Of a stretch of DNA of 64,000 nt, positions 3,056 through 42,416 are shown piece after piece. The notes beneath the pieces are model-generated. The model did not search any database. It was given only the letters and a program-made list of their open reading frames with translations, and was not told the DNA's origin. Source of the stretch: a virus; IMG/VR virus record IMGVR_UViG_3300045988_051359. One strand, given 5' to 3'. Made by a program: the position numbers and the translations under genes. Within the stretch, counting starts at the first letter, position 1. Each line of letters starts with the position of its first letter.

Positions 3056-3364
3056 TCATTCTCGTGTAAGTTCAAATTCACGCATAAAGTTAGCAAATAC
3101 TTGTGCTAACGATTCATCTTGTTTGTTGTTATAGTAATAATTGAATGCATGAAACACTTCATGCCAGAAAGAATTCTTAATCTGTTCTTCAGTCAGATTA
3201 ATTACCTTTCCATCATCAGTCTTCATGCATTCTGCTACCTTTATTTCTAATGTTAAATTACAATGATAGCCAAAGGTATCGCCATCATCTATAAAATCAC
3301 ATAAAGTGACTTTATACCAATGATTGGCTATTCTAACCTTACTAGGGATGTCATATTTATTCAT
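3056..3364 (-). CDS. small HExxH-motif protein (possible minimal zinc metallopeptidase, ImmA/IrrE-like?)
   Basis: 'WHEVFHAF' contains HExxH; 102 aa. Confidence 0.3.
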   Translation of the reverse strand: MNKYDIPSKVRIANHWYKVTLCDFIDDGDTFGYHCNLTLEIKVAECMKTDDGKVINLTEEQIKNSFWHEVFHAFNYYYNNKQDESLAQVFANFMREFELTRE

Positions 3365-4559: not shown

Positions 4560-4811
4560 ATTAATTTACACTCTTATGCAATTAATCAAGATCGTCAATA
4601 GTTACAGATTCATTACAATCTTTAATGAGCGAGTTTATTAATTCAGCACGCTCTGTGGCTAACTTCTTGGCCATCTCCTCTGCTTCCTCTGCCTTCGCAC
4701 GATATTCAAATTGCATAGCATAGGCTTTCTGGATTTCTATGCCTAATTCCGTAATTTGCTTACTTCTAGTTATTACTTCTTCTGAGCTTAACATACAAAT
4801 TTAAACAATAA

Positions 4812-5342
4812 TTAATTAGTTCCAGTGTGTCCAAATCCACCTTTACGATCTGTCTCATTTAATCTAGCAACTTCTTCCCATTCAGCCTTAGCAGCCCAGC
4901 CGAAGACTAACTGTGCAATGCGTTCCTTGTCTTCAATCCATACTGCTTCATGACCTTGATTGATAAGAATGATATGTACTTCATCTCTGAAATCTGCATC
5001 TACAGTGCCAGGCGTGTTAAGTACAGTAATTCCTTTTTTCAGAGCTAGTCCACTCCTAGGTCTTACTTGACATTCTGCTACTAATCCATCTGTAGGCTCT
5101 GGAAGAGCAATTCTTAGTCCAGTTGGAATAAGTGCTCTAGCTCCTGGATCCAATCTTAGCATAGTTACTTTATTACCGTCCATTTTAGGTGATGCAAATA
5201 CGACCTCACAGTCACCAAAGGCTTTAATAGGATTATCAACTGTTACTCTACTAAAGTCTGCACGTACATCCATGCCTGCTGACATGGAAGTTTCATACTG
5301 AGGAAGTTTGTTGTTGGATAAATTAATTACTTGTACTTTCAT
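4812..5342 (-). CDS. dut: dUTP diphosphatase (dUTPase)
   Basis: 'SAGMDVRA', 'RPRSGLA', '[10 protein letters not shown]', 'RKGGFGHTG' match the five dUTPase motifs. 176 aa. Confidence 0.9.
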
Positions 5343-7624: not shown

Positions 7625-7626
7625 AA

Positions 7627-8202
7627 CTATTTATCCCAAAATTTGTAAGTTATGTTTGTTAACTTGTACTCTCCATCCTCAACTATAACCTTATAAAGCC
7701 TTTGGTTAGTGTTTGGATTATTAAGCGGTCCACATTCTTCAATGTAAGGTCCGAGCTTAACGTAATTAAAGTTCTTCAGTTCAATTTCCTCTGCCAAAGT
7801 AGCTCTACCACTATACCACCCAATCTTTATGTTAAGTGGTACTGTTTCTTGCCATTGCATTTCAGTTTCGGCTGGAATTGTTACCTTAGGAAACTTTACC
7901 TCTTTATGAATAGTAAAGGAATCTACTATCTTAGTAGTAGTTAATGTCCTTACTAAACCAGCATAGTGATTAATGAGTTTAGGGTCATTATCGCCACCCA
8001 TAAAACAGATAGCAGTAATACCTTTATTCTCATTAATGAGTTTCTCTATCCTAGTAATTGTTAGAGGTTCTCCAATATCCTCTGCCAAGTAAGAGCTATG
8101 ACAGCCCTTACAATGACATGGACAATTGGATATATTAATGGCAAGAGTGGTTTCATCAGGAATTTCCCTGAATACTATATCATATCCTACATATTTAAGC
8201 AT
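7627..8202 (-). CDS. nrdG: anaerobic ribonucleotide reductase activating protein (radical SAM)
   Basis: 'NCPCHCKGCHS' CxxxCxxC cluster, immediately downstream of nrdD. The ORF track extends to 8259 with a GTG start overlapping nrdD. The ATG at 8202 (giving 'MLKYVGYD...') is the more plausible start. Confidence 0.7.
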   Translation of the reverse strand: MLKYVGYDIVFREIPDETTLAINISNCPCHCKGCHSSYLAEDIGEPLTITRIEKLINENKGITAICFMGGDNDPKLINHYAGLVRTLTTTKIVDSFTIHKEVKFPKVTIPAETEMQWQETVPLNIKIGWYSGRATLAEEIELKNFNYVKLGPYIEECGPLNNPNTNQRLYKVIVEDGEYKLTNITYKFWDK

Positions 8203-10261
8203 GTGCGTAGAATCTTCTGCTAGCTTCTTCTTGTCTTGCTTGACTGAAGTTGCTAACACGTTTTAAATAACCGATAACTCTAGTAGCATAATCAATGTTC
8301 TTACTACCACACTTAGGACATTCTTTGAGATATCTCTTGTCAATATGTCCACAATCATTACAAATAGTATTTGGAATATTGAATGTGAAATAGTTAGTAC
8401 CATTGACAGCTGCAACCTTTAATAGGTTACGATACTGTTCCTTGCTAAGATGTTCATCTAAATTCATGTGGAGGGCGCTACCCCCATCGAGTGAGGCAAC
8501 ATAAGCCCTTCCATGCAGTTTAAACTTATCTAGTATAGTAAGAGACGTATCTTCAACTGCATAGAAGTAACTATTGTAGCAATCTCTTGGTACAAAGTAA
8601 CCTGCCTTTCTATCCCAGTTAGCATGTTTAACACCTAAATTTTCAGCAGGCACAAATTCAGTATTGAACATCAACTCCTTAGTCCTAGCCTTACGATTCT
8701 CATCGCTAATAGTCTTAAGGATAGATTGCATAAATTCTCTGTAAGTAGGATTGTCATTAACTGGAATTCCTAAGAACTCAGCAGCTTCGATAACTCCATT
8801 AACACCTACAGTTAAATACTGTTTCTTCATATGAATGAATCCAGCAGAATAGACAGTTAGTAAACCATCATTTAAATAGTCTTTGAGTAATTCATTATAT
8901 GCAGTTTGATATTTATGAACTTTCTGAACGTTTTCACGTAAATACTCAATCATATCGTATCCGTTATTAACTGCATCTTGAACTAATCTATTAATATTTA
9001 AAGTCATTACAGATTTACTACCAGTAGCAATACCACCAGCTCCAAGAGAATAACTAAATTGATTATCAGTTACTTCATTGCGAAGTCTACAACAACTTGA
9101 CAGACTATCTGCTGAATCAGACATATAAGTAAAGAATGAGTGTCCCTTACTATACATCTCTGCTGTAAAGTCTGCCCATTCTTTATCTACTACATCCTCT
9201 CCATCAGTAAGAAGTGCTACAGTTTCGACAGGGAATGTTAAGATGCACTTAGTGCGTTCATTATTAAACCAAGTCATAAACTTCTTCTGTAACCAGTTCA
9301 AAGAATCCCATATGGGCTTAGTTCCATCGGGGAATACAAACTCACCAAATAAACCTTCAAAGTAATTCTTATCAAAATAACTGATATTCCAGAATACTGA
9401 TTGGAAGTTACGAGCAGCTGCTGGTTGATTGATTGAATATACAATCTGTTGGAACTTCTGTTCAATAGTCTTATCAATATTTCTATGTTTATCAACCATC
9501 TCTTCTGGACGTTTCCAATAATCATCACCCCATTCTTTACGAGCGAAGTAATCGAAATACATTAGGAACTCACCAGTAGCTACTGCTCCAGCGAATTGCG
9601 AGCTGATAGCAAATACCAGATTAACAAACATACCGCAGAAGGAGTCCAGATTCTTAGGCTTGGCAGACAAACCTCCAATTGGCTGTAGCCCTTCAAGTAG
9701 GAACGGATACATAGTGATAGCCACGCAGTAGGGCATAATTGATGTTTCATCATGCTTGTAAAGTTCATGAGATTCCAGTTGTCTAATATACTCCTTAGCT
9801 AAATCTTCACCATATAACTGCCTAATTTTATCTGTAAGGATTGCTCTATTAACTTTAATTACATCACCCTTAAACAACTCTCCATTTAAAGTTACTATAT
9901 TCTTCTCAGTAACATTGGCATTAGCATCATATTTACTACCTGTAGCAGCATTAGATGCTTTGGCATAATCCTTAATAAACTGCTTCTTCCCAGCTAATGC
10001 TCTAAGTTCAGCTTGTTTATGTCGATACAAAATGAATGCTTTAGCAACATCATAGTAATCACAAGCCATCAAAGCCTTTTCAATTTGATCTTGAAGCTCT
10101 TCTACTGATACTATGTTGTTAATATACAATTCATCTTTAATATCATCCAAAATGTCGGAATCAATTGGTTCGTTAACAGCATTGAACGCCTTAGTAATAG
10201 CCGCGTCAATCTTATTAATGTCGAAAGGTTCTACTCTCTTGTTTCTTTTAATTACTAACAT
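8195..10261 (-). CDS. nrdD: anaerobic ribonucleoside-triphosphate reductase (class III)
   Basis: N-terminal ATP-cone ('VIKRNKRVEPFDINKI'), C-terminal Zn ribbon 'CNDCGH..CPKCGS', and glycyl-radical motif 'ATRVIGYL'. 688 aa. Confidence 0.85.
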   Translation of the reverse strand: MLVIKRNKRVEPFDINKIDAAITKAFNAVNEPIDSDILDDIKDELYINNIVSVEELQDQIEKALMACDYYDVAKAFILYRHKQAELRALAGKKQFIKDYAKASNAATGSKYDANANVTEKNIVTLNGELFKGDVIKVNRAILTDKIRQLYGEDLAKEYIRQLESHELYKHDETSIMPYCVAITMYPFLLEGLQPIGGLSAKPKNLDSFCGMFVNLVFAISSQFAGAVATGEFLMYFDYFARKEWGDDYWKRPEEMVDKHRNIDKTIEQKFQQIVYSINQPAAARNFQSVFWNISYFDKNYFEGLFGEFVFPDGTKPIWDSLNWLQKKFMTWFNNERTKCILTFPVETVALLTDGEDVVDKEWADFTAEMYSKGHSFFTYMSDSADSLSSCCRLRNEVTDNQFSYSLGAGGIATGSKSVMTLNINRLVQDAVNNGYDMIEYLRENVQKVHKYQTAYNELLKDYLNDGLLTVYSAGFIHMKKQYLTVGVNGVIEAAEFLGIPVNDNPTYREFMQSILKTISDENRKARTKELMFNTEFVPAENLGVKHANWDRKAGYFVPRDCYNSYFYAVEDTSLTILDKFKLHGRAYVASLDGGSALHMNLDEHLSKEQYRNLLKVAAVNGTNYFTFNIPNTICNDCGHIDKRYLKECPKCGSKNIDYATRVIGYLKRVSNFSQARQEEASRRFYAHA

Positions 10262-10266
10262 TCAAT

Positions 10267-11046
10267 TTAGAAGTTTAATATGTTTCTTAGTAATAGAGTC
10301 TTCTCTGCTCTATTCATCAAATCTTTGCCCTTGTCATTACTAATTAACTGAGTAAATGCATTATACACAGTAAACATATCCACTTCATTACCCTCTCCTA
10401 TATAATAGCTAGAATCAGGGTCCTCAAACATAGAACCATAAGCCTTAACAACAAGGTCTGTTCCTATCTTTACGTCTCCATACCCACCGTTATAGGTCAT
10501 AGATATAGCGTTTCTAACCCATCTACCTAGATTAGAGTCTATATTACTTGGAGTTCCTTCCCATGTAGTATTATGTAAGGTGTCCAACATCAATTTAATA
10601 TCACTGGTTTGTGATAAAAGGTGTTCGACAGCTTTATAATTGATGGGCTTCTCAGACTCTAAGTTCTGAACTTGTAAGAACTCTGGGTCAAAGACACACA
10701 AATTTGTGCATGCTCTATTAAGAGCACCTCTATAAATCTTAGCTACTGGTTTGCGTACATCTAATCCATATACCATACCAATAACTTCATCGTGATTATC
10801 TATTCTGCAATTCTCTGGCATTACAGCTTGAATAAGTACACGATTATAAGTGATATCATCTGCATTAACCTCTCCATCTGCTGTTCTAGTAACTTGCTTA
10901 GGAAGTTCTGCTTCTACTATAAAGTTACTAGTAAACTTATACATTCTTTCTAGGAAGGGTTCTACATAAGCAGCCGTAGGGAAGTAGTTACGCTTCCCTA
11001 TTCTGGTTGCTTTACCATTTAACAGTTGATCAATCGTCAGTTGCAT
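10267..11046 (-). CDS. hypothetical protein
   Basis: 259 aa ORF. Confidence 0.5.
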   Translation of the reverse strand: MQLTIDQLLNGKATRIGKRNYFPTAAYVEPFLERMYKFTSNFIVEAELPKQVTRTADGEVNADDITYNRVLIQAVMPENCRIDNHDEVIGMVYGLDVRKPVAKIYRGALNRACTNLCVFDPEFLQVQNLESEKPINYKAVEHLLSQTSDIKLMLDTLHNTTWEGTPSNIDSNLGRWVRNAISMTYNGGYGDVKIGTDLVVKAYGSMFEDPDSSYYIGEGNEVDMFTVYNAFTQLISNDKGKDLMNRAEKTLLLRNILNF

Positions 11047-13415: not shown

Positions 13416-13973
13416 TTATCCTTCAACCCCAAAGCAGATATATGTGCCCATCTTAGCTGACTTAGACGGAGTGTACTTAACTTCAAAAGCACCATCCTCA
13501 CCTTCAACTACTGCCTTAATATACTTGCAATATACGTCACCAGTGTAGTCTTTCTTAGTGTACAGTTCCTTAGCTACTTCTTTAGCCTTAGTCTTAGTCT
13601 CGAAATTGATAAACAGTACTTCACCAGTTGCAGGATTAATACCTTGATAACCAGTCTTGTACTTTCTCTTGCCTTTCTCATTCTTGATGTCAATCATAGT
13701 GTACGGACGCTCACGAGTGTCAGCAGAACCTGCCTCAAACGTAATGGAACATCCAACACCAGCAGCCATCTTAGTATGTTTAGTAAGATACTCAGCACAG
13801 AATTCCTTCAATGCTTTGTCAGTGATGGGCTTACCAGCAGCTTTCCATGCCTGAGTAGCATCACGAATTACTTGGAATGGGGCTTGTGCAACTGCTTCTT
13901 GTTTAGTGTAACCTTTAACTTCTACTTTCTTAAAATTTACTTGATTAGTCATAATTAATTGAGTTTTAAACAT
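13416..13973 (-). CDS. hypothetical protein (likely highly expressed; own promoter repeats and terminator)
   Basis: 185 aa ORF preceded by duplicated TAnnTTTG elements and followed by a hairpin. Confidence 0.55.
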   Translation of the reverse strand: MFKTQLIMTNQVNFKKVEVKGYTKQEAVAQAPFQVIRDATQAWKAAGKPITDKALKEFCAEYLTKHTKMAAGVGCSITFEAGSADTRERPYTMIDIKNEKGKRKYKTGYQGINPATGEVLFINFETKTKAKEVAKELYTKKDYTGDVYCKYIKAVVEGEDGAFEVKYTPSKSAKMGTYICFGVEG

Positions 13974-14009
13974 TATTCCATTGAGTGTAATCTCTTTGTT
14001 ATTGTATTA

Positions 14010-14025
14010 CAAAGGTACTGCTTTA
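14010..14025 (-). promoter_or_regulatory. Bacteroidetes-type -7 promoter element (TAnnTTTG) copy 1
   Basis: Minus strand reads 'TAAAGCAGTACCTTTG', containing 'TACCTTTG'. About 37 nt upstream of the 13973 start. Confidence 0.4.
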
Positions 14026-14109
14026 ATATTGGATTACCAAGCAATACTGATGTAAAATAATCTTAATGTTGTATTCTCAATCTGACCTCTTCTTTCAGGG
14101 AGGATGCTG

Positions 14110-14125
14110 CAAAGGTACTACTTTA
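14110..14125 (-). promoter_or_regulatory. Bacteroidetes-type -7 promoter element copy 2 (direct repeat exactly 100 bp from copy 1)
   Basis: Minus strand 'TAAAGTAGTACCTTTG'. Belongs to a ~45-bp imperfect direct repeat. Confidence 0.35.
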
Positions 14126-14756
14126 TCTCCAATTGGACAAGTAATGACTAATAAATAATGCGCTAAATTATTTTAACTATTATCATTAGGTGGAAAGCAA
14201 AATGTATTATTGCACGCCATGTAGCTTCACTCTCTTCATAGAATTTATCTATTATGCCATTCTCATCATTAGCGATTATCCCAGTAGCCCATAACAGTTG
14301 ATTAAATCTCATGTCTGGATACTTGTCTATTAAATCGGATAACTTATTAAGAATAGCTTTGTTGTTTACATATCTAGTGTTATTCATACACTTTAAAATG
14401 GTAAATCTGGAGTTGAATCTTCCCAGGGTAATTCTTTATCAAGAATCTCATTGATTTTATCAACCATTTCCTTAGAAGACTTCATATCGAATGTAAGGAA
14501 CTCTGTAGTATTTCTCATGAAGTCATCGCAGATAACTGCAAGACCTTTAAGAATCCTTTCAGAGTTATGAGACTCTTTACCCTTACGAACTTTCTGAATT
14601 ACTTGCCAAGTAGTAGCATTAGGAGTCTTATTTCTGGCTTGCTTAGTAAGGAAGCATATTAGTGAGATCAAGGCAAACTTAGTTCCTATATCACAAGCTA
14701 AACACCCCAAACTGAAGTAATCCTTATAATACTCCCTTAAGTCATTCAGAGTTGGC

Positions 14757-15794
14757 TCATAGTATTCCATCAGCATCGTATCCATACAGTTCGTAGTATG
14801 CTACCATACGTAACAACTTAGTAAACTCTAAGAATCCTTCTTTCATATGACCATTAGTGACTGGGTATACTCCAGACCTGAAATCAGGAACTGTAGATAC
14901 TACTAGCATATTAGCCTTTAAAGAAGGTTTGACCTTATATGTGCTCTCAATATACAGTTTAAGCATCCACATATACATAGCCATTTGTCTAGCATAATGA
15001 TACTTATCAAAACTCTCGCCAAACTTAGTAAGATAATGCCCACTTGTCTTTAAGTCATTGAGTGTTAACTCATCGCTATCAGGACAGTATGTGAAATTAT
15101 CAAGCTTAGCTTTAAGTTTTAATACCTTATTCTTGCCACCATGTTCTACCAACACAGACATTAATAAGGCTGCTTCATTAGCTATAACAGGTTCTGCAAA
15201 TAAACCTTCTGGTTTTAATAATGACTGTATTTGCTTATTGCATTCAACTGATGTGAGACATTCTCGTAGCTTGTCTCTAGACTTGGGATCTAAATAAATA
15301 GGAACCTTACCGGCAACATATTTACTTCCCCATTCATAGGCTGTACGCTGAGCATAGTAGTCTTCGCATTTAATACGTAGAGCTTCCATCTTATCAGCAT
15401 CCATTTTACCCTTATAATAGCTAACTTTATCTGATGCTGCTATAATTTCATCAGCAGTAACAACATGATTAGCTACAAATGTAGGATATAATTCATCCGC
15501 CATGAATCCAGCTTTAGCTGTAGGTCTATTAACTGTTTCTACAAGAATAAATGATTCTGGTTGCAGTATTAATTCATGTACTGCTGAACCAAAATACAGT
15601 GAGTCAGAATACCTAGAGTCTGCTTCTAAACCAGCTTTATACAAAGCAGGACTTCCACCTTGCTCTGGATTTATTAGCTTCAATCTAGAGTTACTGATGT
15701 AATCAGAATAAGCATCCCCGAAGTATTCTTCATCACTTATGTCTAAATATTCTATGGTTTCAATTAGTGGTGTTATTTTAATTTCCTCAAGCAT
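14757..15794 (-). CDS. hypothetical protein
   Basis: 345 aa ORF. Confidence 0.5.
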   Translation of the reverse strand: MLEEIKITPLIETIEYLDISDEEYFGDAYSDYISNSRLKLINPEQGGSPALYKAGLEADSRYSDSLYFGSAVHELILQPESFILVETVNRPTAKAGFMADELYPTFVANHVVTADEIIAASDKVSYYKGKMDADKMEALRIKCEDYYAQRTAYEWGSKYVAGKVPIYLDPKSRDKLRECLTSVECNKQIQSLLKPEGLFAEPVIANEAALLMSVLVEHGGKNKVLKLKAKLDNFTYCPDSDELTLNDLKTSGHYLTKFGESFDKYHYARQMAMYMWMLKLYIESTYKVKPSLKANMLVVSTVPDFRSGVYPVTNGHMKEGFLEFTKLLRMVAYYELYGYDADGIL

Positions 15795-17011: not shown

Positions 17012-18013
17012 TTACTTCTTCAGTACCTTCCATGCTTCGTTAATTAAGTTAAGTGTTGCATCTCTACCATATTTAGCATGAAAGTCGGATATATCCTTAG
17101 CTCCATAAGATCTAGGAATCCATAGGCATTCTACTCCAAATTGCTTCCTTATCCGATTCATATTATGAATTCCAGCTAAGTCATTGTCATAGAACACTAC
17201 TATCTTCTTAAATCTCTTGCTGAGTTTCTCAAACTGAGATTCAGTTATGAATAGATTCTCAGAATTAGGAGCTATTGCAGTAATTCCTAAAGAATATAGG
17301 CACATTACGTCCTTCATACTTTTAGTAATTACTAACAAATCACCTTCTGCTGGGAGTTGATGAGCTCCTTGCAACATGACAGCCTTCCAATTAGAGAGAA
17401 ATCTTGTAGTTCCCTTGTCCCTAAGTGGAAAGTATATACGCCATAACTCAATGCCTTTATCGTTCTTACCTCGATAATAGCCGAATATGGGGTTCTGAGA
17501 ACCAGTAGTAGCATAATAATTCCCATTTAGGAATACAGTTTTACATGAATACACTCTAAATTTCTTTAGAACATCCTTAGTAATTCCATATCTATGCCAC
17601 CATTCCAGCTCTTTATCAGTGAATTCCTGTATTTCAGCCCGTATAACAGCAGGTCCCTTGTCTTTAAACTCAGTACTGCTAATTACTGGCTTACTACCTT
17701 TAGGCAACGTCTTGTGTTTGATATAACCAAAGTCATTAGCAATGATTTGTAAAGCCTTATAATAAGAGCAGCTATACTTATACATTACTACACTGATAAA
17801 ATTGCCATAAAATTGTCCACTGAAATCATTGAAGATGATATCCCCAGACGCATTCCTATAAAAGGAACACGTAGGAGAATTATCATTTCTCAACGGAGAT
17901 TTAAACAGTCCCTTCTTTACTGGGATACCAAGATAATACTCAAGATATGTCTCCTGAGATTGCCTTTCAAGTAAATACTTCTTAGTAATTTTAGGTTCAT
18001 ACTCTAATACCAT
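17012..18013 (-). CDS. DNA primase (DnaG-like: degenerate Zn-binding region + TOPRIM)
   Basis: TOPRIM-like 'VVFYDNDLAGI' with acidic DxD, preceded by 'ITKSMKD' (E/D region). N-terminal 'SPTCSFY...FNDFSG' resembles the DnaG zinc finger. Confidence 0.6.
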   Translation of the reverse strand: MVLEYEPKITKKYLLERQSQETYLEYYLGIPVKKGLFKSPLRNDNSPTCSFYRNASGDIIFNDFSGQFYGNFISVVMYKYSCSYYKALQIIANDFGYIKHKTLPKGSKPVISSTEFKDKGPAVIRAEIQEFTDKELEWWHRYGITKDVLKKFRVYSCKTVFLNGNYYATTGSQNPIFGYYRGKNDKGIELWRIYFPLRDKGTTRFLSNWKAVMLQGAHQLPAEGDLLVITKSMKDVMCLYSLGITAIAPNSENLFITESQFEKLSKRFKKIVVFYDNDLAGIHNMNRIRKQFGVECLWIPRSYGAKDISDFHAKYGRDATLNLINEAWKVLKK

Positions 18014-20007: not shown

Positions 20008-21090
20008 TTATAATGTTATGGTTACGCGTAAATCATCTCGTTTAGCTTTAACTTCATCTTCTGGAAAGTCGATGATAGTCCAATCTGGATGTTTATACCT
20101 CTCATAGTCATTGATTTCAGATGGAATAGGTAACTCTTTAAAGATACCACATCTACCATAAAATCCTGTACCAATAGCTATGCCAGACGAACCAAATCTA
20201 TTCTTAAGAACCAGTAATGACCTGAATCCATCCTTTAGTTCCTTTATGTCATATCCTCTATAAGAAGACAATTTGTTCCTAAATGGATTATACAATACTA
20301 ATACAACATTAGCATCCTCACTAGGAGAACCACTTTCCTTCAAATCGGACAAATCTGGCTCCTGTAATCCTTGCTTTAGTCTTTCAGAATTATTAGAATT
20401 TCTATTAAACTGCATAATATTAATTGGGGATACTTTACATTTATTTCTAAATGATACCCCATATGCAGAAATAGTATCAATCTCTTCTTTCTTACTACGA
20501 CCTGGCAACGGTCTTACTAAGCCCAAATGGTCAGTAATTATAGCTATGATCTGATTAGGATTATTAAGTATATAAGTGTCTTCATCAACAAAGGTTCCAA
20601 ACTTCTTCAAGTCTGCTATAACCATTTCTTTATACTTCTCTGAATTTAAAGTTCCATCATGTATTATGAGTCTGTCTTCTATTGATTCCAGCCATGGAAT
20701 ACATTCTTGAACTAAATCATAATCCTCGTCAGATAGTATTACTCCCTTACCTCTAGAAAGCAATTCTTTAAAAGATATCTGTTTACCATAAGTCTCATAA
20801 ATGTGAATAGAAAGCAGTTTAGCTAATAGCTGTTCTGCACTCATTTCCAGTGAGAATATAATAAACCGTAAATCTCTATCTTGACTTGTATCAAGAAGTG
20901 CTTTATAAATAAAAGAGTGAAGTACTAAACTGGTTTTACCATTACCAGTTCCTGCTGCTACTAAGTAATATGTTTCTTGAGTTAATCCGTCAATAATCTG
21001 TTCTAATTTGGGCAGACCTAGTGATAATCCTTGATTATCACCTCTTCTACCTCTTTCGATTAGATTCAATAAGCTATTAGTATGTGTCAT
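20008..21090 (-). CDS. DnaB-family replicative helicase (RecA-like C-terminal domain)
   Basis: 'GLSLGLPKLEQIIDGL...YLVAAGTGNGKTSLVL' matches the DnaB C-domain linker and Walker A. 360 aa. Confidence 0.65.
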   Translation of the reverse strand: MTHTNSLLNLIERGRRGDNQGLSLGLPKLEQIIDGLTQETYYLVAAGTGNGKTSLVLHSFIYKALLDTSQDRDLRFIIFSLEMSAEQLLAKLLSIHIYETYGKQISFKELLSRGKGVILSDEDYDLVQECIPWLESIEDRLIIHDGTLNSEKYKEMVIADLKKFGTFVDEDTYILNNPNQIIAIITDHLGLVRPLPGRSKKEEIDTISAYGVSFRNKCKVSPINIMQFNRNSNNSERLKQGLQEPDLSDLKESGSPSEDANVVLVLYNPFRNKLSSYRGYDIKELKDGFRSLLVLKNRFGSSGIAIGTGFYGRCGIFKELPIPSEINDYERYKHPDWTIIDFPEDEVKAKRDDLRVTITL

Positions 21091-22242: not shown

Positions 22243-23517
22243 TCAGAATCTAAATATCATTTTAGTTTCCTTGTTCTTCTTAGGAGTAAATTCTCTTCCT
22301 TCTAAGACATCTAGCAGATTAGAGCTGTCTATGGTTATGAAATCTTTACCACTAGTACTTTTACGAAACCATTCTTCTTCAACAGTTCCTTTAATTACAA
22401 AGGTAAATACTTCTGCCACTTTATTCTCTGCCTTCCTAATAACTCTGCCAATTCTTTGTGTCTTGGTAGTAGGACTAGAATCAAATCCAAGAATAACAGC
22501 TACAGACAATCCCGGAATGTCAGCACCTTCGTCCAACATTTTAGAGGTATTAAGCACTCCTACTTTAGCTTCCTTGAATTCCTCCAAGGTCATACGCCCT
22601 TTCTTCTTAGTTTCCTTACTAGATAACACTTTACCGTATCCAATCTTCTCCGCGACTTTAATTGTCTTACTAAACGTAATACATTTCTTGTCTTGACGGT
22701 GCTTCAATATTAAATCAGTAAGTTCTATCTTTTTAGGATGGTTATATATAAACTGTTTCCTTCCTTGCAGGGCTCTGTTAAACCCCATTGCATGTATTAG
22801 AATCTGTTTATTAATAGCCTTAAATTCGTCAGGTTTATTAGCATAATCAGGACACATTCTCTTAGCTAATTCAACGCGTTTCTGCCATTTAGAAACGCAT
22901 GCCATAGCTAAGGTAAAATCATGGTTAAAGAAAGAGAAATGATCATAAAACTCTCTATTTAGTTCTAGGTACTTGCTTAGATCATCTACTTCTATTAAGA
23001 CTTTGTACTCCCTATAAGGAGACAACCAGCCTCTGGCAGTAGCTTCACCAACATCTACTCTATCAACTACAGGACAATACTTCTTGATGTAACTGTCTTT
23101 ACCATCAAGCCTTTCCATAGTTGCTGTTAAACCTAGAATTATTTTATACTTAACTACTTCAAACACCTTTCCAAATAAATCGGAAGCGTATTTATGACAC
23201 TCATCAAGTATTAATAGATCACAATTCCATTCCTTTCTTACTACAGTATTAATGATAAGCACCTGATAAACTTTAGGTACTTTTTGCTCAGCTAAATCTG
23301 CTAACCATTGTCTTTGCAAAGCATCTGTAGGTACTACTATTATAACACTCTTTCCAGGATTCTTAGCCAAGAATCTCTTCATACACATAATGGCAGTTCT
23401 AGTCTTACCGAAACCGGTACAATAGACTAGACTTCCACATAATCTGTTATTAATCCATCGTTGAACACCTAAAGCTTGACGTTCACTTCTGGTAATATTT
23501 CCAAATAAGTCTGCCAT
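22243..23517 (-). CDS. SF2 DEAD/DEAH-like helicase
   Basis: Motif I 'TGFGKTRT', II 'LDECH', III 'LTAT', VI 'QRIGRVIR'. 424 aa. Confidence 0.75.
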   Translation of the reverse strand: MADLFGNITRSERQALGVQRWINNRLCGSLVYCTGFGKTRTAIMCMKRFLAKNPGKSVIIVVPTDALQRQWLADLAEQKVPKVYQVLIINTVVRKEWNCDLLILDECHKYASDLFGKVFEVVKYKIILGLTATMERLDGKDSYIKKYCPVVDRVDVGEATARGWLSPYREYKVLIEVDDLSKYLELNREFYDHFSFFNHDFTLAMACVSKWQKRVELAKRMCPDYANKPDEFKAINKQILIHAMGFNRALQGRKQFIYNHPKKIELTDLILKHRQDKKCITFSKTIKVAEKIGYGKVLSSKETKKKGRMTLEEFKEAKVGVLNTSKMLDEGADIPGLSVAVILGFDSSPTTKTQRIGRVIRKAENKVAEVFTFVIKGTVEEEWFRKSTSGKDFITIDSSNLLDVLEGREFTPKKNKETKMIFRF

Positions 23518-26511: not shown

Positions 26512-27153
26512 TTATTTCCTACCTAAACCATTATAGAAGTCAAGTATGGCGTTCTCTTTACGAAGCCATGTAGCTTGTTCTCTAGCCATATCAAGAATAG
26601 TTCTACTAATGGACTCTTCTTCTACTTGCTCTTTAACTAGCATACCAGTATCTTCATCATCTCCATTTAGCCACTGGAATGTAGCCCAATCTCCTTCTTT
26701 CTGAGCCTGGTCCACAATCTTGTTGATACTCATAGTAGTTTCAATTTCCCTGTCTACCGTAGCAGCAAAAGGCATGATTCTATCCACTATATCCACTTTA
26801 ATAGGAGGAACTGGAGGGTACTGGAACAAGGCATCATTCTCGGTTAGATATTCAAATATCCACGAATGATGTAGGTACTCTTCTTTAGCTCTACCTCTCC
26901 AGTAGATGCCAAGTTTAGGAAGCCCTTCTACTTCAAAGTAATTAGCGAATGTCATATACAAAGCATGATTAGCTAGTTCAGCAGACATCTGCTTTACTAA
27001 CATTTCAATCATTACTGACGATAAAGGACATTTACGTCTTGTAGTATCAATAACTCTCTCAGTATATTTCATAGTAGGTTCTGCACCCACTGTCTGAACT
27101 CCATCACTTGTTACTTCTTGTATTGGATTTCCGTCTTTGTCTAGCTTTCTCAC
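26512..27153 (-). CDS. ferritin-like four-helix-bundle protein (putative)
   Basis: 'SAELANHALY...', 'AKEEYLHHSWIFEYL', 'DQAQKEGDW' resemble ferritin/Dps E..EExxH diiron helices. Confidence 0.35.
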   Translation of the reverse strand: MRKLDKDGNPIQEVTSDGVQTVGAEPTMKYTERVIDTTRRKCPLSSVMIEMLVKQMSAELANHALYMTFANYFEVEGLPKLGIYWRGRAKEEYLHHSWIFEYLTENDALFQYPPVPPIKVDIVDRIMPFAATVDREIETTMSINKIVDQAQKEGDWATFQWLNGDDEDTGMLVKEQVEEESISRTILDMAREQATWLRKENAILDFYNGLGRK

Positions 27154-30477: not shown

Positions 30478-30927
30478 TTACATACTAATAGATCCGGTAT
30501 GTTTACCTCTTACTTTAACAGAGTTAGCAGTAATATCTCCCTCTACATCACCACCTACTTCGATGCTGTTAGCTTCTATACTACCTCCTACATTACCTTT
30601 AACTTCGACACTATTACCATGTACAGTAAGAGCGTTTCCGTCAATGTCACATGTATTACAGTTGAGTTCCTTTACATTACCAGTAAAACTGATATGTACG
30701 CTATCATTATTGACTTCAGATATTAATTTACCATTCACATAAATTCTATTCTTTATTTGTGATATGGTAATATCATCTTCATCAATATCAAACGATTCAT
30801 TATCAACAAACAGTTTATTCATGATTCTTCTTATCCAGTTCATAGTACTTAATAAGTTTATCAAACGCCTTAACTCTAGCATTATGTCCCTCCTCACTAT
30901 CAGGGGTCCACCAATAAGCTTTACCAT
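30478..30927 (-). CDS. beta-helix repeat protein (bactofilin-like)
   Basis: C-terminal periodic 'VHGNSVEVKGNVGGSIEANSIEVGGDVEGDITANSVKVRG' repeats. Confidence 0.4.
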   Translation of the reverse strand: MVKLIGGPLIVRRDIMLELRRLINLLSTMNWIRRIMNKLFVDNESFDIDEDDITISQIKNRIYVNGKLISEVNNDSVHISFTGNVKELNCNTCDIDGNALTVHGNSVEVKGNVGGSIEANSIEVGGDVEGDITANSVKVRGKHTGSISM

Positions 30928-32968: not shown

Positions 32969-33427
32969 CTAAGACGTTGTTGTTTCTTCTTGTACTTCAT
33001 ACACATTTAAGTTTAATTCATTGCTGGCATTATAAGCAAGCTTATCAGCTTTCTCATTATACTCAGAACCATTATGTCCTTTAACCCATCTCACGTCTAT
33101 AAGCTTATGACGTTCAATAGCCTTATCAAGTCTAGCCCATAAGTCAGTATTAGCTTTCCTTTTCCAGTTCTTAGTAAGAGTACCTACTATATACATGGAA
33201 TCAGTAACTATAATGACTTCTGAGCTAGTTTTAATGGATTCTAATGCGACTATAACTGCCATTAGCTCCATTCTTTGATTAGTACTATTTACATACATTT
33301 TACTGTAGGAGAATACTTCCTTTCCATCTTCCACGATAACGAATCCTATTCCACCTTGGTTTCTGGCAGGAGAGTATGCTCCATCAGTGAATATTGTATA
33401 CTTATGCATCAGCTGTAGGATCTTCAA
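32969..33427 (-). CDS. rnhA: ribonuclease H (RNase HI)
   Basis: 'IFTDGAYS', 'NQRMELMAVIVALE', 'IVTDSMYIVG', 'WVKGHNGSEYNEKADKLA' match the RNase HI catalytic DEDD and basic protrusion. Confidence 0.9.
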   Translation of the reverse strand: MKILQLMHKYTIFTDGAYSPARNQGGIGFVIVEDGKEVFSYSKMYVNSTNQRMELMAVIVALESIKTSSEVIIVTDSMYIVGTLTKNWKRKANTDLWARLDKAIERHKLIDVRWVKGHNGSEYNEKADKLAYNASNELNLNVYEVQEETTTS

Positions 33428-38470: not shown

Positions 38471-39910
38471 TTAATCCTTAAAGTCGTTACGACTATATTC
38501 GAAATAAGTTTCACACATCTTTAACGTCGTTTCAATCTTATCAGCTCCGAGCAATCCTATTAACCCAGCGGCTAATTTATCAGCAGGAGTTTCGATAATA
38601 GCTTTCTTAGAAGCAAGACCAACTTGACGTTGATAGGATTCAACACTGGTCTTAATATGGAACGATGTTACATGGGTCTCCTCAGTAAAGATAAGCTTAG
38701 ACTTAGTAGATTCTACAATTTCAGCCATAAATGCCGGAGCAATCTGTGCCTTAGCAATGTAGTTACATACATCTGACAAGTCGTCGTCTACGCTATAACC
38801 TTCAGCTTCGGAGAATGTTTCACGAATAAACCTTTCGGCTGTCTCAGCATCAAGACAATCCATAGTAATCACAGAACCAATTCTCTTACCTCTTAAGAAG
38901 GTAGGTTCAATCAGCTCAATATGATTAGTAGTAAATAAAGTGATTACGTTCATATCTTTGGTATCGCCGCCATCCAAAGTATTCAGAATATCCTGCATTG
39001 CAGAATCTCTGTTACCTCTAGTTACCTGGTCAATATCCTCTACAAAGACAATAACACCATGACCTGAACGGTCTACTACTTTACACATACGGAGAGTTTC
39101 AGCTAACAGAGAAGGGTCTTTTAGATATACGAATGACCATCCGTTGTTTACCGCATCTTTGGCCAGTTTAAATGCCAGTAGGGTCTTACCAGTGCCGTAT
39201 TTACCTTCCAGTAAGCAGCCATACTTCAAAGGAATACCCTTTGCAATACATTTCTCTGGGTACAAGATTCTTGAACGAAGCGGTTGCAGCTCAAATTCTG
39301 TCTTCTTTGACAGGACCATAAACTGCTTATCAATACCAGCTAGAGTCATAATCTTCGGTTCACTCAGATTGGTAATTTCAAGTGCCTGGTTCTTATAGAT
39401 AGATTCAGTTGCGAGCAATTCTTTAGTCCTCTCAACAATATCATCAATAAGAGATTGGTACTTGAATTGGCATTGACCTTTAACCAATAGTAAATGACGG
39501 TCGTTGTCATAGTTAATATTGATTTCAGAATCCTCACCAAGTTCTTCCAAAGAGATTTTACCAAAAGGTACTTTAGTACGAGAGCCGTCAGCTAAGATGA
39601 CATCTACGGTGTCAATATTACTGTTGCCTGAAGGACTCTTATCCTCCTTACTAACAGCAGAACCAAACACTTCGTTTATAGCTCTATTCAATTGATACAC
39701 ACCATCTGGTTTCCAACACAGGAGTGTGTACTTGAATGATGCCATCTTCTTAGACTGCTTGATTTCGCCTTCAATGAAGCCCAGGACGTCCGCGTACTTC
39801 ATATTACTTTGGCACACTTCGATGATTCTCTGTTTCTGAGATTCCTCGTACTTGTTAACTCTAGCTGCTATAGCAGCGGTGGTTCCTTGCGGAATAATGT
39901 TCTTCGCCAT
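38471..39910 (-). CDS. AAA+ ATPase
   Basis: Walker A 'GKYGTGKTLLA', Walker B 'VIVFVEDID', sensor/arginine-finger region. 479 aa. Confidence 0.7.
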   Translation of the reverse strand: MAKNIIPQGTTAAIAARVNKYEESQKQRIIEVCQSNMKYADVLGFIEGEIKQSKKMASFKYTLLCWKPDGVYQLNRAINEVFGSAVSKEDKSPSGNSNIDTVDVILADGSRTKVPFGKISLEELGEDSEININYDNDRHLLLVKGQCQFKYQSLIDDIVERTKELLATESIYKNQALEITNLSEPKIMTLAGIDKQFMVLSKKTEFELQPLRSRILYPEKCIAKGIPLKYGCLLEGKYGTGKTLLAFKLAKDAVNNGWSFVYLKDPSLLAETLRMCKVVDRSGHGVIVFVEDIDQVTRGNRDSAMQDILNTLDGGDTKDMNVITLFTTNHIELIEPTFLRGKRIGSVITMDCLDAETAERFIRETFSEAEGYSVDDDLSDVCNYIAKAQIAPAFMAEIVESTKSKLIFTEETHVTSFHIKTSVESYQRQVGLASKKAIIETPADKLAAGLIGLLGADKIETTLKMCETYFEYSRNDFKD

Positions 39911-40201
39911 TACTTGTTAGGTTTATTAATCTTATTTACTTCCTTAATAATTGCCTCGCAATTCTCTCTGGTTGTAGTTAAACAACCTAATTGAATGATT
40001 GAACCATCTTGAGTGACGGTAAGATTCTTATCATCAATTGTGGTTCTACATTCACTTCCCCTAATAATACTTTTAATCAATGGGTAGGGTAATGCAGTAT
40101 TCTTACAGAATATTACATTCTTGCCTTCCACATAAATGACATCGTAGCCGTCAATGCTACCTACTACCTTCCTCATAAAAAGACTCTTATCATCAATTGT
40201 G

Positions 40202-40444: not shown

Positions 40445-41491
40445 CTATGACTCCCTTACATGCTCTTCATAAATATACAGTTCAAAGTTAGGTCTTATAA
40501 ACATATCTTTGTCTGTAGCTTCGTCCCAATGAGTAACTATAACCTTCTTGCGAACGTTATGGCTAAACATAGAATCAATATTGAGACTATGCCTAAACAA
40601 AACTGGATCAAACTCTATAGCCCGGAAAGATTTCTGAAAGTCGTTAAATTGGTTGTTGGGGTCTACAACAGGTCTAACTGGCTTATCAGAAGGAAACGGA
40701 CCGTTACCATGACGTGTTATGTATGGTCTAGTAACGTAATTAACCGTAACGGTGTCATTACATCCAATTTGTTTTAGTATTTGATGAGCATTCTGTGATG
40801 TTGTATTAGATGGAGTGCAATGAGGCATTATTCCGAATCTTTGGTCTAATAATATACCTTGAGAACCTTCAAAGATAAGATTGTCGTAATCTTTCCATAT
40901 AGCTTCTAAGGTACTTACTTGGACAGTGTTGAAATATGCATTCACAGTTCTGCACCAATTATCCAAGTCAATTGATGGATATACACTATTCATGTGATAA
41001 TAGTTGTCTGCTATTGCATTAACTTTCTCTCTAAGAATATGTACATTCAAGCAATCTATAACCATAAGATTATACCCCGACTTCACTCGGTCTAAACACG
41101 TTTTAAAACCAGTCCCTACAGTACCGTGACGTAGATTTACTACGTCGCTCACTTGGGAATAGACGTCGAATGGTACTATGACTTGACATAATGGATTATA
41201 AATAATTTTAGGAGTAATACCTAATTTCTTTAAATCCATTGCTTCAAGTGTAGAGGTTACTGGGTCTACAGTACAGTATTCAGACCAATATGTAGGCACT
41301 CCTAGTAAGGTTCCACTTCCAAAGTTACTAAATGTGTGCATAAGGTCTCCGTATTTAACAGTATGGCCAACTTGATGTCCGCCACTAAACCTTATTACAA
41401 GTGAGTTCTCTGGATTCTTAGCACATATATTATGTACTGTCTGCCCCTTACCTTCATCGCCCATAAATGAGCCTAACACTATACTAATCAT
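40445..41491 (-). CDS. adenylosuccinate synthetase family protein, short form (PurA/PurZ-like)
   Basis: 'GDEGKGQ' P-loop, 'GGHQVGHTV', 'FEGSQGILLD', 'TPSNT', 'GNGPFP' all match PurA core motifs. 349 aa from the ATG at 41491 (the track's TTG at 41599 adds a non-homologous extension). Confidence 0.75.
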   Translation of the reverse strand: MISIVLGSFMGDEGKGQTVHNICAKNPENSLVIRFSGGHQVGHTVKYGDLMHTFSNFGSGTLLGVPTYWSEYCTVDPVTSTLEAMDLKKLGITPKIIYNPLCQVIVPFDVYSQVSDVVNLRHGTVGTGFKTCLDRVKSGYNLMVIDCLNVHILREKVNAIADNYYHMNSVYPSIDLDNWCRTVNAYFNTVQVSTLEAIWKDYDNLIFEGSQGILLDQRFGIMPHCTPSNTTSQNAHQILKQIGCNDTVTVNYVTRPYITRHGNGPFPSDKPVRPVVDPNNQFNDFQKSFRAIEFDPVLFRHSLNIDSMFSHNVRKKVIVTHWDEATDKDMFIRPNFELYIYEEHVRES

Positions 41492-41495
41492 GATT

Positions 41496-42416
41496 TTAAT
41501 AGAAATTTTGTTTGTCTTCGGTAGTTGTACTACTAGAAGCATCACTAGGAGTTTCTGCATACACAGGCTCCTCGTAATTGTCTTTAATTGCTTTAGCAAT
41601 TACTTTATCCACTTCATCAGATTTGCACATTAGTACATTCTGTCCAAGTAGATTCTTCCAAGATTCAGCCACCCTTGTGCCATAACTGGCATTAGTAATG
41701 TGAATGTGGAATACATGGTACTGTTCTTGTGCTTTCCGAATTGCTTCATTAGCACTAATAGAACCAGCACCTTTTTGATACCCTAGAATTTCAGTTAAAC
41801 TATTACCTGGGATTCCTTGTAAATTAGGTTCATCGCCAATAGTAAACAAGAATCCTTTAGTATGTCTTTGGAACCAAGAATCAGTTTCAGTGTGATATCC
41901 TGCAACTATGTGAGCTAATAAATAACTCTCACCTGCATTACCACCACCTCCACCTTCTATTACTAAGGACTCTAATGAATTTAGAATCTTCTCAGTATCA
42001 GATTCAAACTGTCCAACCTGAATAGGATATCTGTCATATTCGTGGTCTCCAACTGCCATAAATAACAATTGAGGATCACGTACTCCCATTTGCATGACAG
42101 AATCCATAATCTTAGGTAAATGGTTCTTAATCATTTCATAAGGAGTATTCATCATTGAACCAGTAACATCCAGTGCAATGATTATCGGAGTAGAGTATGG
42201 ATGTTCTTGAGAGTCACGACACTCACGAACTCCAACATTGACCATTTCAGCTTTAACTTGAGTATTAAAGCTACGTGCATTTACATTAAACGACGCTGCT
42301 GTATTACTAGCATCTACTGAAACGTTCTTAAAGAGCTGGTCACGCGATACCCTAGTATACCCTCTATCATCAGATAGAGTGTTATAGGCAATGCTACTAT
42401 AAACACCACTTCCCAT
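41496..42416 (-). CDS. von Willebrand factor A (vWA) domain protein
   Basis: MIDAS 'DVTGSM' with downstream 'TIGDEPN' acidic motif. 306 aa. Confidence 0.6.
   Translation of the reverse strand: MGSGVYSSIAYNTLSDDRGYTRVSRDQLFKNVSVDASNTAASFNVNARSFNTQVKAEMVNVGVRECRDSQEHPYSTPIIIALDVTGSMMNTPYEMIKNHLPKIMDSVMQMGVRDPQLLFMAVGDHEYDRYPIQVGQFESDTEKILNSLESLVIEGGGGGNAGESYLLAHIVAGYHTETDSWFQRHTKGFLFTIGDEPNLQGIPGNSLTEILGYQKGAGSISANEAIRKAQEQYHVFHIHITNASYGTRVAESWKNLLGQNVLMCKSDEVDKVIAKAIKDNYEEPVYAETPSDASSSTTTEDKQNFY

Follow-up and report, generated by a model that had tools for sequence, protein, structure and literature searches.

What does a large phage do with a shortened homologue of adenylosuccinate synthetase (PurA)? 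We addressed this question for a gene in the IMG/VR virus record IMGVR_UViG_3300045988_051359, of which a stretch of 64,000 nucleotides (nt) was analysed, called the window in the following. From the sequence alone, this gene had been predicted to encode either a PurZ-like enzyme, which would make it a candidate for the synthesis of the base 2-aminoadenine (Z), or an enzyme that remodels the purine pool. We find that the protein has the PurA fold and is not PurZ, but not an orthodox PurA either. It belongs to a distinct clade whose genes are, almost without exception, directly preceded by a gene for a divergent protein with a von Willebrand factor A (VWA) domain. The explanation that we favour, and to which we give about an even chance, is that the clade is an uncharacterised branch of PurA-superfamily ligases that is coupled to the VWA protein and serves salvage or repair in conflicts that damage adenine- or nicotinamide adenine dinucleotide (NAD)-type nucleotides.

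A shortened protein with the PurA fold

The gene is a genuine relative of adenylosuccinate synthetase. The coordinates originally predicted (40445-41491) hold: translation of the minus strand gives 348 amino acids (aa) followed by a TAG stop. From the ATG at 41491, the N-terminus reads MISIVLGSFMGDEGKG and follows the pattern MxxIVLGxFxGDEGKG that is common to about 120 homologues; we thus take this ATG to be the correct start. A longer open reading frame (ORF) that starts with TTG at 41599 was rejected as the real gene start as it runs into the upstream gene. Read-through of the TAG was also rejected, since it would enter a tRNA-Gln gene and since TAG acts as a stop in this region. All motifs listed in the original prediction were found again, namely GDEGKG (residues 11–16), GGHQVGHTV, FEGSQGILLD, TPSNT, GPFP, VTHWDE and QKSFRAIE.

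The Pfam family PF00709 (Adenylsucc_synt) matches the protein with E=1e-34, aligning residues 4–270 to profile positions 1–279 of 416, and membership in the PurA superfamily is thus far beyond chance. Identity to bacterial PurA is about 25%. The AlphaFold model has a mean predicted local distance difference test (pLDDT) of 90.6 and a predicted template modelling score (pTM) of 0.91. Residues 1–270 are colinear with PurA 1–280, so that the shortening is a truncation of the C-terminus. The length of about 349 aa had been read as a sign of PurZ; the truncation does not bear this out, and relatives in the same clade have 360–442 aa (about 345–368 aa in the subfamily of the window protein). The setting was described correctly as rich in tRNAs and outside a purine operon: the window contains 27 tRNA genes, and a tRNA-Gln begins 15 nt 3' of the stop codon, followed by a tRNA-Met.

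The protein is not PurZ

A PurZ-type enzyme would use dGMP and aspartate and thereby start the synthesis of 2-aminoadenine for a Z-substituted phage genome. Some observations fit this reading. The protein is a short phage homologue of PurA with residues unlike those of PurA at the NTP-base and aspartate-loop positions, its PHROG match (PHROG 1211) bears a PurZ-type name, and the window holds a gene of the dUTPase family. The hallmark of PurZ is a Ser that replaces the catalytic Asp13 of PurA in the P-loop (PMC12884076, PMC8342488). In a tree of 481 viral PF00709 proteins, this Ser was found in 147 of 147 phage PurZ and PurZ0 proteins (PMC12884076), and its reversion to Asp abolishes the substrate selectivity of PurZ (bioRxiv 2025.10.22.683976). 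In contrast, the window protein has the P-loop GDEGKG and keeps the Asp (Asp12). This Asp is invariant in all 58 aligned members of the clade, and the motif GDxxKG is present in 96/96 additional sequences (66 bacterial, 30 viral).

Sequence profiles and structure point in the same direction. The original prediction had suggested a comparison with PurZ and PurA profiles. With the NCBIfam PurZ model NF038379, the window protein scores 17.9 bits against a cutoff of 300, and this match covers residues 182–260 only; the score of a Flavobacterium homologue is 53 bits. A higher score, 100.9 bits, is reached with the best PurA equivalog model, yet this is also below its cutoff of 402 (TIGR00184: 89 versus 395; Flavobacterium copy: 126 versus 402). 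By BLAST, the window protein scores 22 bits to the PurZ of phage phiVC8, 77 to E. coli PurA and 114–212 to its relatives in the clade. Clade-wide, the members are closer to each other (114–235 bits) than to E. coli PurA (75–102 bits) or to phiVC8 PurZ (22–34 bits). When a profile of 40 family members was compared to the PDB, bacterial PurA matched with 1e-38 to 1e-31, archaeal PurA with 1e-19, PurZ0 (7VF6) with 1.6e-5 and PurZ (7ODX, 6FM1) with about 3e-3. The structure prediction, which had likewise been proposed, does not fit PurZ better: with the AlphaFold model, the best Foldseek matches are bacterial and eukaryotic PurA with template modelling (TM) scores of 0.72–0.76, whereas PurZ comes last among the PurA-fold matches (TM 0.64–0.65, 13–15% identity).

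PurZ genes are associated with enzymes that clear dATP or dGTP (DatZ, MazZ/DUF550, or DutZ/DmtZ/DUF5664) and often with DpoZ. The genomic context of the window gene lacks these genes of Z synthesis. A Pfam scan of essentially all ORFs of at least 64 aa detected no HD/YfbR (DatZ), MazG, DUF550, DUF5664 or NDT domain in the 64-kb window, whereas about 120 kb of the phage genome fall outside it. The original statement that no DatZ- or MazZ-like HD or MazG gene is visible in the window is thereby confirmed. DpoZ was not found in the window either, and queries with DatZ and DpoZ of phiVC8 gave no match in 85 related loci; MazZ, DUF550, DUF5664 and NDT are missing from these loci as well. The sole related nucleotide gene in the window encodes an ordinary-looking dUTPase and lies 35 kb from the PurA-like gene. 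Furthermore, members of the clade are encoded by more than 200 cluster C mycobacteriophages and on Flavobacterium chromosomes, settings for which no Z genome would be expected. As hallmark residue, hidden Markov model (HMM), structure and, within the window and the 85 related loci, synteny all argue against it, we reject the PurZ identity, and with it a candidacy of this phage for a Z-base pathway on the basis of this gene; the PurZ reading appears to us hardly credible.

This result also concerns the annotation of related proteins. In RefSeq and PHROG, the homologues in cluster C mycobacteriophages and Rhizobium phages are labelled '2-aminooxy adenylosuccinate synthetase' (e.g. NC_054719, NC_067270, NC_070966). 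Because of the Asp in the P-loop and since no Z-cluster genes lie nearby, this label is probably a mis-transferred PurZ name. The SEA-PHAGES annotation of the clade is 'PurA-like adenylosuccinate synthetase', and about 330 viral PF00709 proteins have been placed outside PurZ (PMC12884076). Thus, the clade has been noticed before; its module architecture and its genomic context are undescribed.

Active-site residues differ from those of canonical PurA

The protein is not an orthodox PurA either. Residues were mapped to E. coli PurA with MAFFT and HMMER, where the register in divergent loops depends on the alignment. The catalytic core is kept: the equivalents of Asp13, Lys16, His41, Gln224 and Thr239 are invariant in the 58 aligned clade sequences (in the window protein, His43 corresponds to H41 and Gln211 to Q224). 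Furthermore, the motifs FEGxQG and TRHG are present in all of the 96 additional sequences. The kept residues, i.e. the P-loop with Asp and Lys, the catalytic His and the base-reading Gln, are those that allow PurA to move the gamma-phosphate of an NTP onto the C6 oxygen of a hypoxanthine-type base.

Around this core, several residues of the binding sites are changed. The aspartate loop of E. coli PurA, 298-GATTGRRRR-306, aligns with Q286-K-S-F-R290, which is four residues shorter and lacks Thr300, Thr301 and Arg303 (HMMER and MAFFT; the register is alignment-dependent). The TTGR motif occurs in 0/96 of the sequences checked. Val273, which we take to be a determinant of aspartate recognition in PurA, is replaced by an invariant His261 (TRHG in 96/96 sequences, TRVG in 0/96). 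Among the ligands of the 5'-phosphate of inosine monophosphate (IMP), N38 is replaced by Gln (Gln40 in the window protein), T129 by Val or Cys and R143 by Gly, His or Pro, and only T239 is kept; an invariant Arg135 lies four residues, i.e. one helical turn, before the R143 column. At the guanine site, K331 is replaced by His or Cys across the clade and D333 is kept, so that the window protein reads THWD for TKLD. The loop corresponding to Ser414–Gly416 (STGP-like) is absent in the short subfamily of the window protein and reads S-x-S-P-D in longer members, including Flavobacterium. Taken together, the clade has a signature of an Asp in the P-loop, Gln for N38, TRHG and a Q-x-x-hydrophobic-R loop, and the window protein fits this signature.

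These results agree with two hand alignments in the original prediction. It had aligned TKLDVL with VTHWDE, with a change from Lys to His, and we find K331 at H321 and D333 at D323 with both programs. It had further aligned GRxRRxGW with QKSFRAIE, which is essentially reproduced by the shortened aspartate loop. The altered specificity that it derived from these alignments stands insofar as the residues of the aspartate loop and of the base contacts differ from cellular PurA, whereas the link to PurZ is unsupported.

The gene is part of a conserved module

The PurA-like gene is the last gene of a module in which a small helical protein comes first and a VWA protein second. The spacing is tight: the helical protein ends 2 nt before the VWA gene, and the stop of the VWA gene lies 4 nt before the start of the PurA-like gene. 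Among viral and metagenomic loci, a VWA gene lies directly upstream and on the same strand in 82 of 85; two of the remaining three are at a contig end without room for it and the third is L089. We also scanned bacteria with one genome per species, which gave 268 loci, of which 80 were retrieved and 66 counted for neighbours. The VWA gene is directly upstream in 79 of the 80 retrieved loci, and the exception is again at a contig end.

The linkage spans deep divergence. In every relative inspected, including a metagenomic phage with 61% identity, the protein encoded directly upstream of the PurA-like gene is a homologue of the VWA protein of the window. It matches the upstream genes of Vibrio phage phiKT1024 (2e-41), Rhizobium phage RHph_TM2_3B (1e-32) and mycobacteriophage Colt (gp252, 7e-29), and a homologue interrupted by a LAGLIDADG insertion is also found upstream in a jumbo contig of 399 kb. 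In a cultured-phage database, the PurA-like and the VWA protein occur in 237 and 220 records with similar host distribution (Mycobacterium 202/201, Rhizobium 10/10, Vibrio 6/6). A VWA partner is missing for the weak PurA-type matches in phages of Listeria, Salmonella, Acinetobacter and Escherichia. Overall, the module ranges over large tRNA-rich phages of Actinobacteria, Alpha- and Gammaproteobacteria, gut metagenomes and Bacteroidota chromosomes.

The VWA protein is a divergent member of its fold. It has no Pfam match at E<=0.01 and no Pfam or NCBIfam family above cutoff, and weak sub-threshold matches to Pfam VWA families were observed. Its AlphaFold model (pLDDT 86) matches integrin I and VWF A domains in Foldseek with a probability of 1.0. 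The protein carries the MIDAS-like motif DVTGSM (DxTGS), an invariant N-terminal M-G-x-G and a disordered acidic C-terminal tail of which the last residue is aromatic; the N-terminal Gly and the C-terminal aromatic residue are strikingly conserved. The family is large, with 1847 clusters at 50% identity at E<=1e-3 and 684 at E<=1e-30. Of the representative viral loci, 22/33 have the helical protein (about 111–154 aa) directly before the VWA gene, as do 60/66 bacterial loci; it has no Pfam or NCBIfam family. None of the module proteins is matched by PADLOC.

Further genes were considered as parts of the module. In loci without the 126-aa helical protein, we looked for a shared third or fourth partner and rejected it, as the upstream proteins (294 aa and J-domain-like, 237/276 aa, 295 aa) show no recognisable homology to each other or to the 126-aa protein (hhalign probability <1%). 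Just upstream of the VWA gene, one viral subclade encodes a protein (about 294 aa; Table 1) in which a J-domain-like HPD motif was recognised by eye; it has no Pfam match, and a similar protein is encoded close to the module in a Bacteroidales metagenome-assembled genome (MAG). ORFs between the VWA and the PurA-like gene in L072, L084 and L003 were rejected as parts of a pathway since they are GIY-YIG or LAGLIDADG homing elements; the module thus is a target of selfish elements. In L135, the gene between the two encodes PARG. Just downstream of the module, the window contains genes for an AAA+ ATPase and an 88-aa protein. As their conservation is limited to the nearest relatives (4 of 33 representative loci), they do not belong to the core of the module.

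Bacterial copies lie among NAD and ADP-ribose genes

Most bacterial loci come from Flavobacterium and Chryseobacterium, and others from Mesonia, Winogradskyella, Sinomicrobium, Joostella, Polaribacter, Bacteroidales/Prevotella MAGs and Moraxellaceae MAGs. In Flavobacterium sp. SLB02, for instance, the gene order by Pfam is LysR, NrtR (Nudix and winged helix-turn-helix), a Prs-like ribose-phosphate diphosphokinase and a microbial PARG, then the helical, VWA-like and PurA-like genes, and then NADAR, Macro with ADP-ribosylglycohydrolase, Tpt1/KptA, a protein similar to 2-oxoglutarate- and Fe-dependent oxygenases, a calcineurin-like phosphoesterase and NAMPT. Neighbours of this type recur in 26–56 of the 66 loci, or in 30–61 of 80 by tblastn, and their order differs in Chryseobacterium. 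The module also occurs with NADAR and NrtR in a Bacteroidales MAG, with PncB and NrtR in a Bacteroidota MAG and with NAMPT and Macro-ADP-ribosylglycohydrolase in a Cytophagales MAG. In Mesonia and Winogradskyella, it lies among SUKH-1/SMI1_KNR4, DUF6892, DUF7738 and DUF1266 genes; such arrays are typical of loci for toxin immunity. On the phage side, the signs are weaker: phiKT1024 and two viral contigs encode NADAR close to the module, and in a Rhizobium phage a phosphoribosyltransferase (PRTase) and an NMNAT/Nudix gene are found 3–5 kb upstream. The bacterial setting and the genes of the Rhizobium phage make counter-defence by restoration of metabolites plausible.

Favoured explanation and alternatives

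In the explanation that we favour, the first half-reaction of PurA would be retained as an NTP-dependent activation of a 6-oxopurine that carries no 2-amino group. The NTP is probably GTP since the Asp of the TKLD-like motif is kept, and the Asp13 equivalent argues against a 2-amino purine as substrate. The second substrate, in turn, is unlikely to be free L-aspartate bound as in PurA: the aspartate loop is shortened by four residues, without Thr300, Thr301 or Arg303, and an invariant His takes the place of Val273. A different group may also be present on the 5' side of the nucleotide, given the change of N38 to Gln and of T129 to Val or Cys and the loss of R143. The enzyme would thus phosphorylate the C6 oxygen of a hypoxanthine-bearing nucleotide, an amine other than the classically bound aspartate would displace the phosphate, and an adenine-type nucleotide would be regenerated or derivatised. 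For example, a deaminated (hypoxanthine) adenylate, ADP-ribose or NAD derivative might be returned to the adenine series. The working form of the enzyme is probably a complex with the VWA protein, and the genomic context points to a role of the module where NAD+, ADP-ribose and adenine nucleotides are damaged. In the phage, it would be an accessory function for counter-defence or nucleotide salvage instead of DNA base replacement.

Several observations weigh against this explanation. With tblastn searches using the proteins of the Flavobacterium operon, only NADAR was found within 10 kb of the module, in 3 of 86 phage sequences, and the Pfam scan detected no NAD-related gene in the window. As NAD genes are rare near phage modules, the link to NAD comes mainly from the operons of Bacteroidota, among which there are many close relatives, and adjacency is the only sign that NrtR controls the bacterial operon. 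The invariant Arg135 could still bind the 5'-phosphate; given its position one turn before R143 and the dependence of the loop mapping on the alignment, IMP, and even aspartate in another pose, might still be used. The roles of the VWA and the helical protein are left unexplained. Literature searches aimed at the clade revealed no function for it and no link to VWA, TROVE, NrtR, NADAR, NAD, Kongming/dITP, RADAR or anti-defence. Lastly, a VWA–PurA-like ORF of 576 aa in L064 was rejected as a Rosetta-stone fusion: it arises from an in-frame deletion of the C-terminus of the VWA protein and residues 1–13 of the PurA-like protein. This deletion takes out the P-loop Asp, so that the ORF gives no support for a fusion, and the copy is probably defective or mis-assembled.

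Among the alternatives, an orthodox adenylosuccinate synthetase is unlikely, although it keeps some real weight. As an auxiliary metabolic gene, it would convert IMP, L-aspartate and GTP to adenylosuccinate and raise the supply of AMP and dATP in the infected cell; drift would account for the divergent loops, and the VWA neighbour would be there as a regulator or by coincidence. The conserved catalytic Asp, Lys, His and Gln together with Thr239, bacterial PurA as the nearest solved structures, the guanine-reading Asp of TKLD, the resemblance of the S-x-S-P-D loop in long clade members to the STGPD of PurA, and further nucleotide-supply genes in the window (NrdD, dUTPase) all agree with it. However, scores that reach a quarter of the equivalog cutoffs, the rebuilt aspartate loop with the invariant His, the near-perfect linkage to the VWA gene over very deep divergence and bacterial copies that lie in NAD/ADP-ribose instead of purine operons argue against it. 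The remodelling of the purine pool that was originally predicted is disfavoured where it means the orthodox PurA reaction, because of the rebuilt aspartate site and the obligatory VWA partner. It is unlikely, though conceivable, that the helical, VWA and PurA-like proteins together form an unrecognised repair or counter-defence pathway with PurA-type chemistry on a non-canonical substrate. Such a pathway might re-aminate hypoxanthine in ADP-ribose- or NAD-type dinucleotides or in nucleic acids after the action of adenine-deaminating or NAD-degrading effectors, or might couple a purine nucleotide to some amine that is not free aspartate and that the VWA protein possibly presents.

Two further readings were considered. 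The module could be directed at RNA and act with the phage tRNAs and the Ro60/TROVE protein, e.g. on a hypoxanthine or lactam base in RNA, or, in a variant, take part in RNA repair coupled to Tpt1, PARG and NADAR. In agreement with this, the gene lies inside the array of 27 tRNAs, a TROVE/DUF2828 protein is encoded in the window, in L001, in phiKT1024 (3 kb from the module) and in Colt (the Ro-like gp224), the bacterial operon contains the nucleic-acid-directed enzymes Tpt1/KptA, PARG and NADAR, and the mononucleotide site has changes in its 5'-phosphate ligands. We nevertheless consider a role on RNA quite improbable. A TROVE homologue lies within 10 kb in only 17 of the 85 loci, tRNAs and Ro-like genes are common in large phages for unrelated reasons, and no RNA-binding domain was detected in the three module proteins. 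To our knowledge, no enzyme of the PurA family acts on polymers. An even poorer candidate is a non-metabolic NTPase switch, in which the PurA-like protein, as a SIMIBI-type GTPase, would partner the VWA protein in assembly or remodelling instead of small-molecule chemistry, similar to MoxR-VWA chaperone pairs. P-loop NTPases are typical partners of VWA proteins, the AAA+ ATPase lies just downstream in the window phage, and in a Moraxellaceae MAG, a gene for a CoxE-type VWA protein lies upstream of the module. Only 4/33 representative loci contain the AAA+ gene, however. Residues required solely for chemistry on the purine substrate, i.e. the equivalents of Asp13, Gln224 and Thr239 as well as His261 and Gln286, are invariant across the clade, which disfavours a switch and argues for a true enzyme.

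Genomic surroundings

The features of the window and of the related loci are listed in Table 1. The tRNA genes lie all on the minus strand, cover nearly all amino acids and are separated by small ORFs. The window has a G+C content of 36%, and the start of the PurA-like gene has no obvious Shine-Dalgarno sequence. Together with relatives from human faeces and homologues in Bacteroidota, the tRNA array, the G+C content and the missing Shine-Dalgarno sequence point to a gut phage of roughly 180 kb with a Bacteroidota host. One of the tRNAs is a suppressor with the anticodon CTA, which reads TAG. The stop codons of 80 genes in the window are TAA (49), TGA (19) and TAG (12), and most TAG stops are backed by TAA or TGA within 0–7 codons. 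Such a pattern would fit a recoding of TAG in genes of other genome regions, e.g. late genes. The region from 3357 to 23517 is a block of replication and nucleotide genes; no DNA polymerase was detected in the 64-kb window. The protein with an SPFH/Band-7 domain is unusual for an accessory region of a phage.

Table 1. Positions of module genes, neighbouring genes and inserted elements in the window and in related loci
Sequence	Feature	Position	Strand	Remarks
Window	PurA-like ligase gene	40445..41491	minus	348 aa; ATG 41491; TAG stop 40445-40447
Window	Divergent VWA/MIDAS-domain partner	41496..42416	minus	306 aa; AlphaFold and Foldseek; PHROG 2971 (unknown function)
Window	Small helical protein	42419..42799	minus	126 aa; directly before VWA gene
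Window	AAA+ ATPase	38471-39910	minus	479 aa; PHROG 10440; weak PADLOC IetA-like matches
Window	88-aa protein	39910-40176	minus	
Window	27 tRNA genes	30396-56669	minus	
Window	Suppressor tRNA	52262-52334	minus	ARAGORN label 'Pyl'
Window	TROVE/Ro60-like protein	54681-56399	minus	572 aa; weak DUF2828 match; PHROG 850 'RNA-binding protein'
Window	SPFH/Band-7 N-terminal domain protein	45049-47037	minus	662 aa; E=4e-27
Window	ATP-dependent DNA ligase	3357-4559		
Window	dUTPase	4812-5342		
Window	Dda/PIF1-like helicase	6260-7624		
Window	Anaerobic ribonucleotide reductase NrdD	8195-10261		with ATP cone
Window	PD-(D/E)XK nuclease	14757-15794		
Window	Toprim primase	17012-18013		
Window	DnaB-like helicase	20008-21090		
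Window	SNF2/ResIII helicase	22243-23517		
Window	Ferritin-like protein	26512-27153		concatenated-ORF Pfam scan
Window	Bactofilin-like repeat protein	30478-30927		concatenated-ORF Pfam scan
Window	RNase H	32969-33427		concatenated-ORF Pfam scan
Window	PDDEXK_5 endonuclease	50262-50558		concatenated-ORF Pfam scan
L070	HPD-motif protein	106-990		about 294 aa
L072	HPD-motif protein	14-898		about 294 aa
L073	HPD-motif protein	7874-8758		about 294 aa
L076	HPD-motif protein	4448-5188		about 294 aa
L078	HPD-motif protein	7453-8337		about 294 aa
L091	Similar HPD-motif protein	13884-14837		Bacteroidales MAG
L072	GIY-YIG homing endonuclease gene	2224-2967		between VWA and PurA-like genes
L084	GIY-YIG homing endonuclease gene	9406-10029		between VWA and PurA-like genes
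L003	LAGLIDADG element	7891-9396		splits VWA gene; 399-kb jumbo contig
L064	VWA–PurA-like ORF	9278-11008		576 aa

Implications and comparison with known systems

For the window phage, for the more than 200 cluster C mycobacteriophages and for the Rhizobium and Vibrio phages with homologues that bear the label '2-aminooxy adenylosuccinate synthetase', this gene alone is no ground to consider them as candidates for a Z genome. Instead, the results describe a large, coherent and unstudied enzyme system in which a PurA-like enzyme is tied to a VWA/MIDAS protein and usually also to a helical protein, and which spans phages of at least four bacterial phyla as well as Bacteroidota chromosomes. The bacterial context, be it an NrtR-linked operon or an island of the toxin-immunity type, leads to the testable hypothesis that the system adds a new step to the arms race around NAD+, ADP-ribose and adenine nucleotides. 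If true, the PurA fold would be shown to catalyse a new reaction, and phages might possess a new class of counter-defence.

The closest well-known enzyme is PurA itself (EC 6.3.4.4; E. coli 1ADE/1CG0, H. pylori 7PVO, L. pneumophila 6BS7). Both share the fold, colinear over residues 1–270, with the P-loop GDEGKG, the catalytic His, Gln224, Thr239 and the Asp of the guanine-reading TKLD kept in the window protein. They probably also share the first half-reaction, the phosphorylation of the purine C6 oxygen. In contrast to PurA, the subfamily of the window protein has a truncated C-terminal domain, about 25% identity to PurA and scores far under the equivalog cutoffs, and in the loci examined the PurA-like gene is always preceded by a VWA gene and never found in a purine operon. 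PurZ and PurZ0 (6FM1, 7ODX, 7VF6) are similar in being phage-encoded, shortened enzymes of the PurA superfamily with NTP-base contacts unlike those of PurA. They differ by the Ser in place of Asp13, where the window protein has Asp, and PurZ is shortened by internal deletions of the archaeal type instead of at the C-terminus. Furthermore, the window gene has no datZ/mazZ/DUF550 or dutZ/dmtZ neighbours, and PurZ phages have no VWA partner, as the weak PurA-type matches in Salmonella, Acinetobacter and other phages come without a VWA match.

With regard to context, the bacterial copies resemble the phage NAD+ reconstitution pathways NARP1 (Adps and Namat) and NARP2 (NAMPT and NMNAT) and the NrtR regulons, as they are found with a Prs-like kinase, NAMPT, an NrtR gene and ADP-ribose hydrolases. 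However, no described NARP contains a PurA-like or VWA component, NARP genes are absent from the window and most phage loci, and activation of the purine C6 is unrelated to the known NARP steps. NARP3 was rejected as a relative because its pathway (PnuC and NadR) is unrelated. The nearest known proteins are the homologues in cluster C mycobacteriophages, annotated as 'PurA-like adenylosuccinate synthetase' (Bxz1, Colt gp253), in Rhizobium phages RHph_TM and in Vibrio phages phiKT1024 and Va1, which belong to the same clade and form part of PHROG 1211. They share 29–32% identity (114–142 bits) and the signature residues with the window protein and have a VWA-like gene upstream. With 378–442 aa, these homologues are longer and have an extended C-terminal domain with an S-x-S/G-P loop, which the subfamily of the window protein has lost.

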